Assembly (NCBI RefSeq): GCF_030253515.1
Contig: NZ_CP124549.1
Location: 480,001 to 512,000 of the forward strand
Direction of reading: 5' to 3'
Origin: Candidatus Nanosynbacter lyticus
GTDB lineage: Bacteria; Patescibacteriota; Saccharimonadia; Saccharimonadales; Saccharimonadaceae
DNA: 32,000 nucleotides
How positions within the stretch are numbered: position 1 is the first letter of the stretch; each line of letters starts with the position of its first letter. The notes beneath the pieces were generated by a model. It saw only the letters and a program-made list of their open reading frames with translations, did no database searches and had not been told where the DNA came from. This document shows, one piece after another, positions 10,132 to 22,784 of this stretch. A program made the position numbers and the translations under genes.

Positions 10132-11655
10132 ATGACGCACGAGGAATTACTACATCTAGCGGCGCCGCAGTACGATGAAGTACCGGTACTAGTGTTAGAT
10201 AGCGCTATTGACTACGCCACCAAAAAGCATGCCGGCCAAAAGCGCAAAAGCGGCGAACCCTACATCACGCACCCGCTGGCGGTGGCTGGGATTTTGGTGG
10301 AATGGGGTATGGATATTGACACGGTGATCGCTGGCGTGCTGCATGATACCGTCGAGGATACCGATGCGACGCTGGATGAACTAGAAAGTTTGTTTGGCCG
10401 CGACATTGCTTTTCTGGTTGACGGCGTAACCAAGGTGTCGCAGGCGCGCGCTGGCATGCGCAGCCTTGATAGCTACTTGCCGCACACCAAGGACAACCTC
10501 GCCAAGCTGATGATCGCGGTCGGCGAGGACATTCGAGTGATTATTATCAAGCTGGCGGATCGGCTACATAATATGCGCACGCTTCAATATATGCCGCGCG
10601 ACAAGCAGAAGAAAATCGCCCGCGAAACAATTGAGGTGTTTGCGCCGTTGGCGGATCGGCTGAATATGGGGCGCGTCCGCGTACAATTAGAAGAGCTTAG
10701 TTTCCGATTCTTGATGCCCAAGGATTTTCAGCGCACCAAGAGTCTGATGGACAGCCGCCTGAAAAAAAGCCAGCGCAAACTCGCCAAAGTCCGCCGCGAC
10801 GTTACGGCGCGCCTGCAGAGCGAAGGCCTACGGTTCGATATGGATGGCCGGGTCAAAAGCGTGTATAGCCTGTTCAAGAAGCTCGACCGCGTTGGCAATA
10901 TTGATAAGATTTACGATCTGATTGCCCTACGCATCATTGTTGATGATTTAGCGACCGGCTATCTGGTACTGGGCGTGCTGCACGAGATGTACCAGCCATT
11001 CTATGAGCGCATCAAAGATTACGTTGCCAACCCTAAACCAAACGGCTACCAAAGTCTGCACACAACAGTGCAAACGCCGACCGGACAAATTGTCGAATTC
11101 CAAATTCGTACCCAAGACATGCATGAATACGCCGAGCGCGGTTTGGCGGCCAGCTTTCATTATAACGAACAAAAGATGTCCGATGCCTACCGCCAGGGGC
11201 GAATCGCCGCGCTGCCGACGGATTTGGCATGGATTCGTGACCTACAGGAAACGGCGGCCCGAGCACGCGAGGGTAAATCATTTGATTCAGAAAAATTCCG
11301 CATGAAGTTGTTTGAAGATCGCATCTTCGTCTATTCGCCCAAAGGTGATATTTATGACTTACCGCGCGGCGCCTTCCCGCTGGATTACGCCTATCGCATT
11401 CACTCCGACATCGCAGCGCACGCCAGCGGCTTTAAGGTCAATGGCGTTATGAAGCCGTTCACTTATGAATTGCAGCATGGCGATGTTGTTGAAGTCTTGA
11501 CCAGCAAATCAGCCAAGCCCAAACCAGCCTGGCGCGACATGGTCATCACGCCGCACGCCAAAACCAAACTGCGCATGCAGCTATCAAGGAGTGGTGGCGT
11601 ACTCGGGCATCTGACTGGATTGACCGACGGCGTTTCGTCGTTGTTTCGACGGTAG
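10132..11655 (+). CDS. rel: Short bifunctional (p)ppGpp synthetase/hydrolase (RSH: HD + synthetase + TGS, no ZFD/ACT region)
   Basis: HDTVEDT hydrolase motif, YQSLHTTV and EFQIRT synthetase motifs, and a TGS-like GDVVEVLT C-terminus. First ATG at 10132, 6 nt after TATAAT (10120-10125); the ORF-track start at 10117 is a TTG inside the promoter. Confidence 0.9.
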   Translation: MTHEELLHLAAPQYDEVPVLVLDSAIDYATKKHAGQKRKSGEPYITHPLAVAGILVEWGMDIDTVIAGVLHDTVEDTDATLDELESLFGRDIAFLVDGVTKVSQARAGMRSLDSYLPHTKDNLAKLMIAVGEDIRVIIIKLADRLHNMRTLQYMPRDKQKKIARETIEVFAPLADRLNMGRVRVQLEELSFRFLMPKDFQRTKSLMDSRLKKSQRKLAKVRRDVTARLQSEGLRFDMDGRVKSVYSLFKKLDRVGNIDKIYDLIALRIIVDDLATGYLVLGVLHEMYQPFYERIKDYVANPKPNGYQSLHTTVQTPTGQIVEFQIRTQDMHEYAERGLAASFHYNEQKMSDAYRQGRIAALPTDLAWIRDLQETAARAREGKSFDSEKFRMKLFEDRIFVYSPKGDIYDLPRGAFPLDYAYRIHSDIAAHASGFKVNGVMKPFTYELQHGDVVEVLTSKSAKPKPAWRDMVITPHAKTKLRMQLSRSGGVLGHLTGLTDGVSSLFRR

Positions 11656-11921: not shown

Positions 11922-12455
11922 TTACGCCTGCTCGTTCCAGCGCTCAATCGCCGCCGCCACAACCTGCTTGGCGGCATCAACGCCAGCAAACTCCTTGACA
12001 ATGGTCGAGCCTGGCTTCTTCAGATCCTTATAGTGATTGAAGTGGAATTCAATTTGCTTAATCAGCTGTACTGGCAGATCCTCCAACGACTGAATGGCGT
12101 TACCATTATGGCGATCGTCGCTTGGCACCGCGATAATCTTATCATCAACCTCATCGTCATCGACAAACTTCATCACGCCAAGGATCCGCGCCTCGACCAC
12201 CAACCCGGTCGTCAGTGGCGTATCCGTCACCAACAGCACGTCCAACTCATCGCCGTCCTCATCCAGCGTCTGCGGAATGAAACCATAATTAGTCGGCTTG
12301 GCAAAGATCGCCGGATCAACCCGATCTAGCCGCATGACGCCGACCTTCCGATCCCATTCAATTTTATGATTTGACCCAGCCGGAATCTCTACGACAACGG
12401 TGATTTCGCCGTCCTGATAGTTTCCCGGGGTTACTACTTGGTTAAAATCCGCCAT
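11922..12455 (-). CDS. ppa: Inorganic pyrophosphatase (family I)
   Basis: EIPAGSNHKIEWD and DGDELDVLL motifs. GAGGAG SD. Confidence 0.95.
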   Translation of the reverse strand: MADFNQVVTPGNYQDGEITVVVEIPAGSNHKIEWDRKVGVMRLDRVDPAIFAKPTNYGFIPQTLDEDGDELDVLLVTDTPLTTGLVVEARILGVMKFVDDDEVDDKIIAVPSDDRHNGNAIQSLEDLPVQLIKQIEFHFNHYKDLKKPGSTIVKEFAGVDAAKQVVAAAIERWNEQA

Positions 12456-18389: not shown

Positions 18390-18407
18390 ATATATCAGTA
18401 TACCATT

Positions 18408-18914
18408 CTAATCAACAGTGTAGTCAAACACCTTGATGGGAATACCTTTTTCCCTGGCTTGATCAATTGTAAACGTCGTGCCAGGGCTATCGTTGACCCG
18501 AAATGCCACTAATTCATCTGCCAGAGCAACAATCTGGCAATTACGCGCATGAAACGACTCGGCGTTGACTTCGGTAAATTCGGTGGTATCGCTCAGCACT
18601 CCAGGTCGATGTTCGGTGATGTCTCGCAAAAGAGCGACCGTCGCGACCGCATCATCTTGGCGACATTTACCGACAGCTGCTCGGTCATATAACGCTTGGC
18701 AATATAGTTCCAGCTCCACTGGCAAAAATATCCGAAACCGTGCCGCCTCCAAACCATGCTCATACGCCAGCCGAGCCGCTTCGTGATCAACACCAGTAGC
18801 GCCGCCCGTCACAATCCCGCCGCCTTCAGTAATCTTTTGTCCAACACACTGCTCAATGTCACGGCGAATCGTGTCATTCACTTCGCGCGTACCGACAACT
18901 CCGAGCCACTTCAT
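18408..18914 (-). CDS. SLOG-fold (DprA-like Rossmann, DUF2493-like) protein of unknown function
   Basis: VVGTRE...TGGATGVDHEAARLA...ARNCQIVALADELVAF...SPGTTFTIDQAREKGIPIKVF matches, by eye, the GxR / GGAxGxD / RN..iv..aD / GT...i..A pattern of stand-alone SLOG/DUF2493 proteins. Confidence 0.6.
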   Translation of the reverse strand: MKWLGVVGTREVNDTIRRDIEQCVGQKITEGGGIVTGGATGVDHEAARLAYEHGLEAARFRIFLPVELELYCQALYDRAAVGKCRQDDAVATVALLRDITEHRPGVLSDTTEFTEVNAESFHARNCQIVALADELVAFRVNDSPGTTFTIDQAREKGIPIKVFDYTVD

Positions 18915-18936
18915 AGTTTGCCCCGTTGACTAGATA

Positions 18937-19392
18937 TCACCCTTGAGCGGCAATGATCTGCGCCTGAATCCGGTCAAGCTCCGCCTCATCCATCTTTGGC
19001 CCCTCGGTCGTCGTCAGCCAGCCGCGATAGCTCTCGTGGAACTCTGCATTCTCCGCCCAGACGTCAGTCCGCCCCGCCAAATCACCATGTAGCGGATACA
19101 GTTTGGCGTGCACATGCGCTACGCCCGTTCCCTCGAACACCAGCGCTACCCGCGGCGTATTAAACGCTCGTTCTAGTAGCCGCGCCACTTGACGCACTGC
19201 TCGCATAAACTCGAGATATAGCGTCTCGTCAATCGCAAAAATATAATCACCCGGATTATGCTTTGGAATGACCACTGTCACCCCCGGGGTATTTGGAAAC
19301 GGCGTGAGAAACGCCAGGAACTGCTCGTCCTCCCAAACCTTCCATGATTTTACGGTGCCTGATACAATGTCGTCGAAAATTGTATGGTTCAT
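18937..19392 (-). CDS. HIT-family nucleotide hydrolase/transferase-like protein with a variant triad (HVHAK)
   Basis: HIT-like fold sequence ending in GVAHVHAKLYPLHG. AAAGGAG SD 5 nt upstream of the ATG at 19392; the ORF-track start at 19407 is a TTG. Confidence 0.75.
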   Translation of the reverse strand: MNHTIFDDIVSGTVKSWKVWEDEQFLAFLTPFPNTPGVTVVIPKHNPGDYIFAIDETLYLEFMRAVRQVARLLERAFNTPRVALVFEGTGVAHVHAKLYPLHGDLAGRTDVWAENAEFHESYRGWLTTTEGPKMDEAELDRIQAQIIAAQG

Positions 19393-19548
19393 AGTTACTC
19401 CTTTCAAATAATTATAGCAAATAATTTTAAGCTAAAGCAAAATACAACGTAAGGCTACATCCCGTGTTATACTCACAACTTCCCACTAGGTTTAGTCCTA
19501 TGGTTAAACTATTGCTGCAGAGGTAATCTATTATTTTATGCCATAATT

Positions 19549-19603
19549 TTGACAAAATCCATTGACGTTTTGTTCTATTATTTGATATATATATCAGCCT
19601 TTG
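19549..19603 (+). promoter_or_regulatory. Promoter module copy B: TTGACA-N7-TTGACG, 17/18-nt spacer, (A)TATATA, then TATCAGCCTTT
   Basis: TTGACA at 19549-19554, TTGACG at 19562-19567, TATATA at 19586-19591 and TATCAGCC at 19592-19599. Same order and spacing as copy A, with 1-2 nt indels. Confidence 0.65.
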
Positions 19604-19698
19604 CATCCGCAAGGGTCGGCGTTTCGCCCAAAGCCATTGGGCTTGAGACGCTCCACTTCGCGAGATAATTATCTCGCCTGACTCCAAGAGGAGTTATT
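19604..19698 (+). promoter_or_regulatory. Structured 5' leader with an SD-sequestering hairpin
   Basis: GCCCAA/TTGGGC hairpin. 18-nt perfect palindrome GCGAGATAATTATCTCGC (19660-19677). TGACTCC-AAGA-GGAGTTA hairpin (19679-19696) pairs the AGGAG SD. Confidence 0.5.
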
Positions 19699-19914
19699 AT
19701 GGGAACTAACAGCCAGTACGAGGGTGGTATGGGCCGCATCGGTGGAGAGGTCATGTACTGGGACAAGAACGATGACGGTACTACCAACATCTTCCCCGGT
19801 GGCATGCCCGGCGCACGGCCGCACGACCACATCGTCGTGAATGAGGACGGTGGTGTCGAGTATATGCGCGTCGACGGCGAGGTCATCAACGACTACCGCG
19901 ACCACCACGGCTGA
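19699..19914 (+). CDS. Hypothetical 71-aa Gly/Asp/His-rich soluble protein
   Basis: Strong SD (AGAGGAG, 5-nt spacing) and a terminator hairpin 18 nt after the stop. No similarity recognised. Confidence 0.6.
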   Translation: MGTNSQYEGGMGRIGGEVMYWDKNDDGTTNIFPGGMPGARPHDHIVVNEDGGVEYMRVDGEVINDYRDHHG

Positions 19915-19931
19915 TTCCTACTAAGCGGTTT

Positions 19932-19960
19932 GTGGCTTCCGTACAAAAAGCCACTTTTCC
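19932..19960 (+). terminator. Intrinsic terminator after the 71-aa ORF
   Basis: GTGGCTT / 9-nt loop / AAGCCAC followed by TTTTCCTTT. Confidence 0.75.
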
Positions 19961-19968
19961 TTTATAAT

Positions 19969-20319
19969 ATGTCATTGATTATGGATAATCATCATACTAT
20001 TATTGAGAAATTTACCGGCAAGCTTCATGAGTGCGCCTCACGTGGTCATTTTGAATTTACTAATCTGCCTATGGGGTCATATGACTTCTTTTACATCGTG
20101 ACTGAAGATAGATGCTTTGCTGGTGAAGTATGTCTTTTTAAGACGCGGTCTGTGTTGTATGACCCAATGAGCCGCTCAAGTGAAGCTTCTCCGATAGTTG
20201 GCGTAGAAGATGGATCTGGTAAAATTGTAGACTCTTGCTTCTCGTTGTATAGTCAACCAGATAATTTTATATTCTTCGACGGAGACTTCAACTATTGCTT
20301 ATATAAGCTAACACCGTAA
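19969..20319 (+). CDS. Hypothetical protein (116 aa from M14; the start could also be 19981)
   Basis: The ORF-track start (TTG at 19930) lies inside the terminator hairpin, so it is trimmed to the first ATG. TATAAT at 19963-19968. No SD and no recognisable domain. Confidence 0.4.
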   Translation: MSLIMDNHHTIIEKFTGKLHECASRGHFEFTNLPMGSYDFFYIVTEDRCFAGEVCLFKTRSVLYDPMSRSSEASPIVGVEDGSGKIVDSCFSLYSQPDNFIFFDGDFNYCLYKLTP

Positions 20320-20453
20320 GCTTAATGCTTTTTCATTTTTCAGGAACATAGACCAAACCATCTTCATCAGCGGAAGCTGTCGCCCAGCTACTCATGATTT
20401 CAGAATGATAGTCTTCAAATACTTGCTCATTCGTTGATTTTGGCCAGTTTGTC

Positions 20454-20738
20454 ATGGGATTTTTCGTGTTTGAGAATTGCAACCTGGATTACGCAAAGCA
20501 TATTTACAGGCAACCAGTCTGTTTTAAGAATTCATCAGTTCAGAGCGTAGATTTTCGCGGCGTCAAAGCTATTATTGAGGCAGGGGGCTGTGCCTTTCGC
20601 GGTATGAAATACGACGAGGAAACACAATTTATTTATGGTAGCGGCAAGTTGGCAGCACGATCACACTTTGTGAATCGCCAGGTGGACGATGGAGTGCAAG
20701 AGTTTTTTGATACGGCAAGATGTAGAGACTATAGATAG
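20454..20738 (+). CDS. Hypothetical protein, possibly a decayed fragment (pentapeptide-repeat-like stretches)
   Basis: Open frame of 94 aa without an SD or nearby -10 box. FENCNLDYA and FKNSSVQSVDFRG loosely resemble pentapeptide repeats. Confidence 0.3.
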   Translation: MGFFVFENCNLDYAKHIYRQPVCFKNSSVQSVDFRGVKAIIEAGGCAFRGMKYDEETQFIYGSGKLAARSHFVNRQVDDGVQEFFDTARCRDYR

Positions 20739-20802
20739 GTAACTGTATAATATAATTAATAGGCTAAATACAATACTAGATAAACGCCAGAAAGGCCACC
20801 AA

Positions 20803-21366
20803 ATGACCAAAAAACTATTAGAAATCGAACGCAAACGTCAATTAACTGGTGACGCAAACGAATTACTCAAGCGATTGCAAGACCTTGGTTTTGAACTACA
20901 GAGCAATCTCCACGAAATTGATACGTATTATTCTCGTCCTGATGTCGACTTTATGCAGACGGTTGAATGTCTGCGAATTCGCCAGCGCGATGGTTTTGCT
21001 GAGGTGACATATAAGCCTGCAACGACGGCTGCGACACATACGAAAAATAATGTGATTATTAAGCCCGAGACAAACCTGCCAATTCAGCCCGAGAGCGCAA
21101 CGGCTGCCAAACAACTGTTTGCTAACCTTGGCATGGTAAAACTGGTCGAGGTCAACAAATACCGGCGATCGTTCCAATCACCAAACTTTCCAAAAGCAAC
21201 AGTAGCTATTGATGAAATTAAAAACGCCGGCACGTTCGTGGAAGTTGAGGTTTTGTCAGACGATGAGACTAGTGCTCTAGCGATGATTAGTGACATTGAA
21301 ACCAAACTCGGCCTTGACTCGACAGAAGTTGTCACGCGGCCTTATCGGGATATTTGTATGGGATAA
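20803..21366 (+). CDS. CYTH-domain protein (class IV adenylyl cyclase / triphosphatase fold)
   Basis: N-terminal ExExK signature (EIERK, residues 7-11), 187-aa stand-alone size and the beta-rich alternating pattern typical of CYTH. TATAATATAAT at 20746-20756 upstream. Confidence 0.8.
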   Translation: MTKKLLEIERKRQLTGDANELLKRLQDLGFELQSNLHEIDTYYSRPDVDFMQTVECLRIRQRDGFAEVTYKPATTAATHTKNNVIIKPETNLPIQPESATAAKQLFANLGMVKLVEVNKYRRSFQSPNFPKATVAIDEIKNAGTFVEVEVLSDDETSALAMISDIETKLGLDSTEVVTRPYRDICMG

Positions 21367-21837
21367 TCAAGCTACGTTTTTATCAAATCCACGCCTCGCC
21401 CCACCGCCCAACCGCAGCAGTACATTATACAAAAACATGATAACTCCCCAAAAAATAACACTCAGATAATTACCCCAATTAAAATCATTCCAAGGATTGC
21501 GAGCCGGGCTGTCTGTCGGGTCGTACGCCACAAACCCCACTACGGCCATCACGAGAATGATCAAGAGTCCGGAGATGACAATTTCACGCACGTAGCTGGA
21601 GCGCTGAAATACTGATAGCCTCAGATTATATCGAGCCCCTGATGGCAACAACACTAGTAACACTATAACGATATATGATGGGATGGTTATTATACCCTCG
21701 AACACATCCCACGGGTTCACTTTCATGATATCAGGCTTCACTACCTTTACGATTTCTTGCATACCCAAGGACACCCCGAAGAATAACACCAGTATAATCA
21801 GTACTAGTCCAATAGAACTCCATCGCCTAGTCCACAT
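21367..21837 (-). CDS. Hypothetical 4-TM membrane protein, second gene of the AT-rich cassette
   Basis: GGGAG SD 6 nt upstream of the ATG, located inside the 3' end of the preceding gene. Four hydrophobic segments at about residues 8-26, 47-66, 84-106 and 123-143. Confidence 0.75.
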   Translation of the reverse strand: MWTRRWSSIGLVLIILVLFFGVSLGMQEIVKVVKPDIMKVNPWDVFEGIITIPSYIVIVLLVLLPSGARYNLRLSVFQRSSYVREIVISGLLIILVMAVVGFVAYDPTDSPARNPWNDFNWGNYLSVIFWGVIMFLYNVLLRLGGGARRGFDKNVA

Positions 21838-22753
21838 TGTTGGCTCCCGTTATGACATTGGTGGCTGCTTGATACACCTCGTGGATTTTACCAAAAACCT
21901 GGTTGTCATATTCTTCTCGATCTTCGATGCTGCTGTCTGGCAGTTCAATTGTATTCTTGAACTGCGGCTGCATAATGTTAACCGACGTCACTTCCATGCC
22001 CTCTTCAATCTCAACTTCGTAAACCTGCTTTTCGACACCCGGAAACTCCTTCATATAGTGATCAATGTACGCGCCAGGAGACAGAAACTTACCTCTACTC
22101 GGCCGAAAATCAATGACGATAGTACCAAGTGTATCAGTACGATTATCGATCAAAGGTGCGGAGAATAAACTCTTCGCTAGTTGGCTAATTTTATTATTGT
22201 GTTCTATGGCTTCGCGAGGAACAAATATCTTCGCGGATTTTATACGATGCGCCCGCCTGATTAACTCGATGGCGTCTGGATGACAAATCACCGTCCCGAT
22301 AAATGCTGCCTTTTCAGAAAGCGAAAGTTTTACTACTTGATTATTAATATACGCTAAAATCTTTACGTTTGTGGCGACGTTTCGGTTGTATTCTAATGCC
22401 ATAATTCCCTTATCAGCATAGTACAGAAAATGCACCACTTGCACCGGCAGCTGCCCATCAGGCAGCGGATAGCGCTTGACGAGATCATCATCGTCCTTGC
22501 CTATAGTAATCACATTTGACCCATACACGGCGATGATGCCAGCATAGCATTTGGATAGTTCGCTGGTTTTATGTAGCTTATCAAACTGCAAAAGCCGCAT
22601 GAAAGACTCATCATCATTCGGATTGTACTGCCAATTCCTATCGTCTTCTTCGAGGTTCATCAGATCACGAAGAACATCCTCAAACGGATAGCTGCCGTAC
22701 CCCTCATCGTCGCGATTGGTGATGTTGTAGAGAAAGACGTTGCGCTTAATCAT
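21827..22753 (-). CDS. Hypothetical 308-aa soluble protein, first gene of the AT-rich cassette
   Basis: GGAG SD 7 nt upstream of the ATG at 22753 (a GTG lies at 22756). Long uninterrupted frame in AT-rich DNA. No catalytic motif recognised by eye. Confidence 0.8.
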   Translation of the reverse strand: MIKRNVFLYNITNRDDEGYGSYPFEDVLRDLMNLEEDDRNWQYNPNDDESFMRLLQFDKLHKTSELSKCYAGIIAVYGSNVITIGKDDDDLVKRYPLPDGQLPVQVVHFLYYADKGIMALEYNRNVATNVKILAYINNQVVKLSLSEKAAFIGTVICHPDAIELIRRAHRIKSAKIFVPREAIEHNNKISQLAKSLFSAPLIDNRTDTLGTIVIDFRPSRGKFLSPGAYIDHYMKEFPGVEKQVYEVEIEEGMEVTSVNIMQPQFKNTIELPDSSIEDREEYDNQVFGKIHEVYQAATNVITGANNVD

Positions 22754-22784
22754 CACATATCTCCAAATGGACTAATTGACTGAA

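Follow-up and report, generated by a model that had tools for sequence, protein, structure and literature searches.

A candidate RexAB-like phage-exclusion module carried as an accessory cassette behind pheS in oral Nanosynbacter

Introduction

Beside the gene of its cI repressor, the lambda prophage carries rexA and rexB, two adjacent and coupled genes for a soluble protein, RexA, and a small membrane protein, RexB, which act in phage exclusion in an enterobacterial host. Here we describe a gene pair of similar layout from Candidatus Nanosynbacter lyticus, an episymbiont of the Saccharibacteria. The pair lies directly behind pheS in a stretch of 32,000 nucleotides (contig NZ_CP124549.1, positions 480,001 to 512,000 of the forward strand), referred to as the window throughout; X denotes the soluble-protein gene and Y the membrane-protein gene, while L-numbers stand for related loci and P-numbers for relatives of the X protein. 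We read X-Y, with moderate confidence, as a RexAB-like two-component phage-exclusion module that forms an accessory cassette behind pheS in oral Nanosynbacter.

RexA has been described as a seven-stranded split globular domain, with a four-stranded, four-helix dimerisation domain placed between its parts and a long C-terminal helix, alpha8, and RdgC, IML3 and CHL4 have been named as its structural relatives (PMC11077077). Comparable pairs are encoded by prophages of actinobacteriophages, such as Sbash gp30/gp31, CarolAnn gp43/44 and Butters gp30/31. In Sbash, gp30 carries a DUF4747 domain and its partner gp31 has four transmembrane (TM) helices, and this prophage-encoded defence has been likened to lambda RexAB (PMC6426596). 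A further defence system, Kiwa, is encoded in the order kwaA-kwaB and joins a tetraspan membrane protein, KwaA, to a soluble DNA-binding partner of ~300 aa, KwaB, for which a Rossmann-like domain and DUF4868 have been described. RdgC, in turn, is a dimeric, non-specific DNA binder.

Anti-phage defence is little known in the Candidate Phyla Radiation (CPR)/Saccharibacteria, and phage attack on Nanosynbacter has, according to one report, been shown by experiment only recently (PMC13578794).

A two-gene cassette under purifying selection

X and Y occupy the minus strand between pheS and a gene for a CYTH protein, with the following signals and cassette ends:

21827..22753, minus strand: X, 308 aa from its ATG, a soluble acidic protein with a RexA-like (RdgC-type) predicted fold; an in-frame GTG is found at 22756
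22764-22761, minus strand: GGAG, ribosome-binding site of X, 7 nt 5' of the X ATG as read from the sequence
21367..21837, minus strand: Y, 156 aa, a basic membrane protein with four TM segments
21848-21844, minus strand: GGGAG, ribosome-binding site of Y, 6 nt 5' of the Y ATG and within the 3' end of X
22754..22784, minus strand: spacer of 31 nt between pheS and X, the left cassette junction; the pheS stop is at 22787-22785
21364..21369, both strands: right cassette junction, at which the Y stop TGA (21369-21367, minus) abuts the CYTH stop (21364-21366, plus)

An earlier, sequence-only reading of this DNA had proposed the two reading frames, both Shine-Dalgarno sites, an 11-nt overlap between the genes and a gap of 31 nt behind pheS, all of which we could confirm on the sequence. 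These 11 nt are shared by the end of X, with its stop at 21829-21827, and the beginning of Y, and the same overlap is kept in close relatives, which suggests that translation of X and Y is coupled; the GGAG upstream of X is also kept in L043, L046, L051, L035 and L045. Between pheS and X, where the earlier reading had seen no terminator hairpin, neither inspection of the sequence nor a terminator scan revealed a terminator-like site, and the sole minus-strand terminator candidate (21184-21162) is located ~180 nt beyond the Y stop. Overall, promoter- and terminator-like matches in the region did not exceed the counts in shuffled controls.

The two products have the properties that the sequence-only reading ascribed to them: X is soluble and acidic, with no hydrophobic segment and a pI of 5.1, and Y is basic (pI 9.8), with hydrophobic segments at residues 8-26, 45-63, 86-104 and 125-143. 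The AT-richness it had claimed for the cassette holds in direction, with a GC fraction of 0.443 for X and 0.454 for Y versus 0.523 for pheS, 0.518 for pheT and 0.521 for the window, and was overstated in size (33-50% GC as compared to 55-62% in flanking genes). In comparisons with relatives, restricted to pairs with unsaturated dS, the ratio of nonsynonymous to synonymous substitution rates (dN/dS) was 0.05-0.08 for X and 0.06-0.12 for Y, with pheS at 0.02-0.15 for comparison. Both are functional genes under purifying selection, and because they are conserved in 50+ loci at a dN/dS of 0.05-0.12, they are real genes rather than chance open reading frames (ORFs).

The predicted fold of X

We modelled X with AlphaFold2 on an alignment of 18 sequences, which yielded a mean predicted local distance difference test score (pLDDT) of 74.7 and a predicted template modelling score (pTM) of 0.75. 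When this model was compared to the Protein Data Bank (PDB) with Foldseek, a structure search that the sequence-only reading had recommended, lambda RexA (8twq) ranked first with its chains B and A (E 9.5e-7 and 1.1e-6, probability 1.00), followed by E. coli RdgC (2owl, E 8.2e-6) and then by the kinetochore proteins CENP-N/Chl4. These neighbours coincide with the published structural neighbourhood of RexA (PMC11077077). The model comprises five strands plus helices in residues 3-143, four strands plus four to five helices in residues 151-249 and, in its C-terminal part, two strands (254-270) followed by a long helix (279-305). It therefore shows the split domain of five plus two strands, the inserted four-stranded domain, the long C-terminal helix and the RdgC-likeness that characterise RexA at the level of the fold, with the secondary-structure elements in agreeing order. 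On the strength of this model, X probably has a RexA/RdgC-type fold.

Among predicted viral structures, the best matches to X were uncharacterised phage proteins of 277-322 aa, with E-values down to 6e-14, and phage RdgC proteins appeared lower among the matches. The likeness to RdgC, a protein of similar length, is one of fold only: PDB entry 2OWL is the second-best structural match, and the RdgC Pfam model, PF04381, does not match X. Sequence-based searches recovered RexA in neither direction, as the RexA Pfam model PF15969 gave no match to X at E<=0.1 and PDB sequence searches with X-family profiles did not find 8twq.

The family of X and its surroundings

Scanned directly against Pfam, PADLOC, NCBIfam and PHROGs, X and Y gave no significant match. 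A word-indexed homology search returned 19 clusters 51-96% identical to X, none of them with a Pfam domain; an exhaustive profile search with X through 1.84 billion representatives found only 20 matches, 15 of these at E<=1e-10, so that the family is small, and a second word-indexed search using the wider alignment found nothing further. Among the matches are distant full-length relatives, P0020-P0038, with 18-35% identity to X. Three of those found by the X profile score above the Pfam gathering score of 27 bits for DUF6731 (PF20505), namely P0038 (54.1 bits), P0022 (35.8 bits) and P0021 (33.9 bits), whereas X itself and its Saccharibacteria relatives do not reach this model directly. Aligned with hhalign, the close X family and the distant DUF6731-type members match over their full length with a probability of 100% and an E-value of 3.5e-51; both are ~300 aa long and have in common the motifs HF.Y and NLLQ.K and a tyrosine in the C-terminal helix. 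Judged from these alignments, X is a divergent member of an extended DUF6731 family, by a membership that is transitive only, because its relatives pass the cut-off and X has no direct match.

The label 'orphan', which X had been given from its sequence, is therefore too strong, also in view of matches to two PHROG phage families of unknown function, phrog_10865 (11/17 X-family members) and phrog_7651 (8/17). For DUF6731, we found no mention in the literature searched, and hence no function is attached to it. P0021, alone in this respect, also shows a weak match to DUF4747 (PF15931; 19 bits at a cut-off of 27), which is co-linear (93-226 versus 86-221 of 257); X itself does not match DUF4747.

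The surroundings of the distant relatives are of a defence-like kind. P0038 (L014 5750-11099) belongs to a prophage. An HTH_3 repressor/M78 peptidase pair flanks it on one side and a serine recombinase on the other, Gam and Rad52-like genes are close by, and its 3' end is overlapped by a convergent gene for a 166-aa protein with four hydrophobic stretches, an arrangement that resembles the lambda immunity region with rexAB. The cluster in which P0021 (L016 321-9956) and the 133-aa four-TM protein that follows it are embedded is reminiscent of restriction-modification (RM) systems: an SNF2 helicase stands on one side, an N6/N4 methyltransferase and a ResIII endonuclease on the other, and L016 may be a composite defence locus. 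P0022 is followed by a membrane protein of 137 aa and P0020 by a hydrophobic protein of 64-75 aa. In the more distant Saccharibacteria, where X is 52-58% identical, X-Y still resides within the pheS-pheT interval. The pair is the sole content of this interval in L001; in L003 it lies beside a type I RM system with a KAP NTPase and a reverse transcriptase, and in L011 beside a methylase with GmrSD.

Y, the membrane partner

The co-occurrence of the two genes, which the sequence-only reading had left to be checked, turned out to be complete: a co-oriented ORF of 131-156 aa follows X in 50/50 loci with sequence past the 3' end of X, and in all but one of them its start overlaps the X stop. Y is an obligate partner of X. 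It diverges far faster, retaining 20-25% identity where X retains 52-58%, and at 156 aa it is close in size to RexB, an inner-membrane protein of ~145 aa, with which it shares four TM helices and a position directly downstream of the soluble partner. The TM segments of RexB (8-26, 49-67, 84-102 and 116-134) are nearly superimposable on the hydrophobic segments of Y given above. Both proteins also have a basic central loop with the pattern R-x-RL...Y; in Y, Arg73 is nearly invariant, and the loop motif R.N.RL..F....Y resembles RTRRLAKIREYGY of RexB, a resemblance that amounts to nothing statistically.

In two related loci (L001 10824-11258 and L002 898-1332), the public gene call is an antisense ORF of 144 aa, and the four-TM Y homologue (L001 10903-11328) was missed. 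Partners of the Y type are probably under-annotated for this reason.

Distribution and exchange of the cassette

We followed the locus through 80 species-level oral Candidatus Saccharibacteria/Nanosynbacter genomes with a pheS protein 84-97% identical, 66 of which offer at least 1 kb of sequence downstream of pheS. X is present in six of these 66 assessable species (L019, L035, L043, L045, L046 and L051), each time together with Y. The empty state is seen in L022, L024, L034 and L036, where the pheS stop is ~17 nt away from the CYTH stop, and in L069 the CYTH gene also follows pheS directly; X-Y and the empty state thus differ by a clean indel of ~1.4 kb. This is the presence/absence polymorphism between pheS and pheT for which the sequence-only reading had proposed to look, and with 6/66 species carrying the pair, we rejected the notion that X-Y is a housekeeping pair with universal conservation at the locus.

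Elsewhere, the slot directly after pheS alternates between X-Y, a type IIG RM cluster, a pyridine-nucleotide oxidoreductase, several orphan cassettes, or nothing. In L018 (11213-17105), for example, whose pheS is 97% identical, the place of X-Y is taken by an MmeI-type IIG RM gene, a DEAD/ResIII helicase and a T5orf172/MUG113 protein. The distance from pheS to pheT ranges from 1.8 to 9.9 kb, with pheT not within 9.5 kb in 14 genomes, and across the 80 species the interval holds 137 ORF clusters. Besides housekeeping genes (from rearranged loci), accessory genes of metabolism and many orphans, these include clear defence genes, with matches to MmeI-type IIG RM (E 4.9e-251), AbiP2/DRT (E 1.9e-153), SoFic and ATPase-Toprim/OLD-like proteins.

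How similar X-Y is between two loci does not follow the similarity of their pheS genes. In L099, X and Y are 100% identical while pheS is 85% identical; in L112, pheS is 99% and X 95% identical, and L104, L110 and L113 combine X at 94-95% with pheS at 83-86%. The metagenome contig L099 (5143-12918) aligns to window positions 23607-15833 with ~96% DNA identity from the middle of pheS through pheT, and upstream of mid-pheS only an RmuC gene aligns, at 67%, a pattern that places a recombination breakpoint inside pheS. As far as this alignment tells, divergent Nanosynbacter lineages have exchanged the entire island. X-Y is an accessory element, patchily distributed and exchanged by recombination.

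In 12 related loci, a partial second copy of the pheS 3' end (33-73 nt, 90-97% identical) lies 0.7-1.7 kb past the pheS stop and brackets alternative cassettes (L076-L078, L081, L082, L084, L085, L091, L095, L104, L125 and L128; in L076, for instance, at 10925-11043 and 11925-11965). L128 has two extra copies, the second ~2.6 kb downstream, and L104 appears as a chimera, with pheS, the oxidoreductase, a truncated HIT gene, a pheS-3' remnant, X, Y and CYTH in this order; the window has a single pheS 3' end. Their appearance is that of an att-like footprint, left where cassettes inserted at the 3' end of pheS, but an integrase is lacking in their vicinity; near X-Y, we saw neither an integrase nor a transposase.

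The remainder of the interval in the window is made up as follows:

18390..22784, both strands: hypervariable pheS-pheT interval, in the window order SLOG/DprA-like, HIT, three small ORFs, CYTH, Y, X
18408-18914, minus strand: SLOG/DprA-like protein, 168 aa, matching Pfam DNA_processg_A and PADLOC ShosA (E 6e-11), next to pheT
18937-19407, minus strand: HIT-family protein by family scan, which together with the SLOG/DprA-like gene lies directly upstream of pheT
19699-19914, plus strand: ORF of 71 aa, Gly/Asp-rich, with a strong Shine-Dalgarno sequence and no family match
20803..21366, plus strand: CYTH/class IV adenylate cyclase-like gene by family scan, convergent with Y

The HIT gene is 97-99% identical in those X-Y-carrying GTDB genomes that have it (5/6), as opposed to ~70-81% in genomes without X-Y, and because of this higher identity in the carriers, the right half of the island may travel with the cassette. 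We also considered the CYTH gene, which had been suspected from the sequence of belonging to the system, as a third component and rejected it: CYTH is found at this locus in 38/80 related species, most of them without X-Y, and several X-Y loci are devoid of it. The CYTH genes that adjoin X-Y in two lineages, co-oriented and upstream in L008 (9395-9997) but convergent and downstream in the window, are of very different types (~26% identical). As CYTH is common at the locus without X-Y, its adjacency to the pair, though recurring, probably reflects residency at the locus.

Discussion

The reading of X-Y as a RexAB-like phage-exclusion module is carried by the gene order, soluble before membrane protein in adjacent and coupled genes, by the sizes of the products (308 aa for X and 279 aa for RexA, 156 aa for Y and 144 aa for RexB), by RexA being the best PDB match for X, and by the near-identical placement of the four TM helices in Y and RexB. 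It differs from the lambda pair in that neither protein shows significant sequence or profile similarity to its counterpart, in its chromosomal location behind pheS rather than beside cI in a prophage, and in its host, a Saccharibacteria episymbiont instead of an enterobacterium. The actinobacteriophage pairs, whose protection against heterotypic phages has been demonstrated, likewise consist of a soluble protein and a small four-TM partner encoded directly downstream, and they are further linked to the X family by DUF4747, through the weak match of P0021. However, Sbash gp30 and CarolAnn gp44 are longer (~370 aa), the pairs are prophage-borne, and DUF4747 stays below the cut-off for P0021 and is not detected in X. 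The earlier view of X-Y as a horizontally acquired, defence-like pair of a soluble and a tetraspan protein holds in so far as the pair is obligate, accessory and exchanged and has relatives in defence-like contexts. Its layout is not an undescribed one, though, and neither can the system be called undescribed, given that lambda RexA/RexB and the actinophage Rex-like pairs agree with X-Y in fold, in the order of the genes and in the topology of the partner; X-Y is probably a very divergent variant of the known Rex-like kind and not a categorically new system.

If lambda RexAB and Sbash gp30/31 are taken as models, X would probably be a dimer that binds nucleic acids non-specifically, and we propose that it senses a phage-induced DNA or protein signal. 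X would then switch on Y in the membrane, and Y would dissipate membrane potential and ATP, such that phage development aborts, an abortive infection by depolarisation of the kind ascribed to RexAB. Expression of the pair would probably be constitutive, by read-through from pheS and with translational coupling between X and Y.

A number of observations weigh against a RexAB-like module. The global template modelling scores of X against 8twq are low (0.30-0.37, with a root-mean-square deviation of 10-12 Å); low values are to be expected if the two hinged domains are oriented differently, and they fit a hinge movement between the two domains but also an error of the model, which leaves some doubt. 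X-family profiles, compared by hhalign to lambda RexA as a single sequence and as an alignment of 18 sequences, reached a probability of 0.1-0.5% and E-values of 0.12-0.41; the alignment is long, co-linear and in near-identical register from the two query profiles, yet not significant. The same applies to the Y alignment against RexB (probability 0.15%, E 0.4), and the RexB Pfam model PF15968 matched neither Y nor five Y homologues. Y, modelled from a single sequence, gave a poor structure (pLDDT 62), with which a fold search found nothing. None of the PADLOC models matched X or Y, and deposited phage genomes and IMG/VR viral contigs yielded no close X relative: tblastn queries with X, P0038 and P0021 against phage and plasmid records remained without a match, as did scans of IMG/VR using the X alignment and P0038. 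In the window, the pair lies outside any prophage, has no adjacent repressor and apparently sits on a housekeeping transcript. Both there and in the Saccharibacteria relatives, its place is between pheS and pheT, with neither a repressor nor an integrase nearby, and not, like that of rexAB, in a prophage immunity region, where the distant P0038 is located. Its location alone is weak evidence for defence, since metabolic and orphan genes are found in the variable interval as well. Lastly, the Rex mechanism itself is incompletely established, and binding of RexA to DNA did not correlate with T4rII exclusion (PMC11077077).

The same two proteins might instead operate by a non-suicidal logic akin to that of Kiwa, with Y anchoring X at the membrane and sensing the perturbation of the envelope at DNA entry, and X clamping the incoming DNA non-specifically to block replication or late transcription. 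Such a mode of action would agree with the non-specific DNA binding of RexA/RdgC-fold proteins and with the example of Kiwa, a system of this mode of action whose soluble component is dimeric, binds DNA and is paired with a four-TM protein, and non-suicidal defence seems plausible for an episymbiont with a very small genome. We nevertheless consider it unlikely. Neither KwaA, KwaB nor DUF4868 was matched in Pfam and PADLOC scans, no Kiwa entry is among the 50 best PDB fold matches of X, the Rossmann-like plus DUF4868 architecture of KwaB differs from the predicted topology of X, and the genes are arranged as in rexA-rexB, opposite to kwaA-kwaB; membership of X-Y in Kiwa itself, of which the protein sizes had been reminiscent, is thus unsupported on each point examined.

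Quite improbable, in our view, is a physiological role in which X, kept at the membrane by Y, modulates recombination or DNA uptake in the manner of RdgC and controls, for example, the processing of competence-imported DNA. RdgC is the second-best structural match of X and regulates RecA-dependent processes (PMC11077077), the interval in the window includes a DprA/SLOG-like gene, and X-Y is seemingly co-transcribed with pheS. But RdgC is encoded by a stand-alone chromosomal gene, whereas X always has its membrane partner. To our knowledge, no canonical RdgC has such a partner. The presence of X-Y in only 6/66 close species and its exchange by recombination also suit an accessory gene better than a core factor of DNA metabolism, and distant relatives are known from the immunity region of a prophage and from an RM-like cluster. 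That the pair is a prophage remnant or moron, with its main role in the life cycle of the phage itself and now stranded with little function for the cell, is very improbable: both genes are under strong purifying selection, in lineages with X identities down to 52%, their linkage is conserved in 50/50 loci, and neither the window nor 40+ related loci have phage genes, an integrase or a repressor near X-Y. All the same, there are matches to PHROG families, one relative belongs to the immunity region of a prophage, and lambda RexA, independently of RexB, influences the bistable lysis-lysogeny switch (PMC11077077).

If X-Y is a RexAB-like module, as we favour, Rex-type exclusion would extend from temperate enterobacterial and actinobacterial phages to the chromosomes of CPR/Saccharibacteria, and DUF6731 would gain a function-level hypothesis, that of a RexA-like sensor. 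Modules of this kind are then undercounted, because current defence-finder models miss X-Y completely. One may go further and regard pairs of a DUF6731-type and a four-TM protein as an unrecognised, widespread branch of Rex-like immunity, delivered in Saccharibacteria as interchangeable cassettes into a dedicated site at the pheS 3' end. This generalisation is doubtful, but if it were true, ultra-small episymbionts would keep a recombination-driven 'defence slot' in an essential tRNA-synthetase operon, and the module might act on competence-imported DNA or host-derived prophages as well, beyond classical lytic phages.

Further reading frames of the interval

Compact, well delimited and variable, the slot between pheS and pheT could be mined for more defence candidates in oral TM7. 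Orphan cassettes occupy the post-pheS slot in L052 (11079-12013, a pair of 89 aa and 221 aa), L048 (11045-11686, 210-213 aa) and L060 (11044-11625, 193 aa); they have no Pfam or PADLOC match and are candidates for accessory or defence functions. In the window, the 71-aa ORF stands out by its composition, with a GC fraction of 0.60, and of 0.78 at third codon positions (GC3), inside an AT-rich stretch with a GC fraction of 0.38-0.39 on either side.

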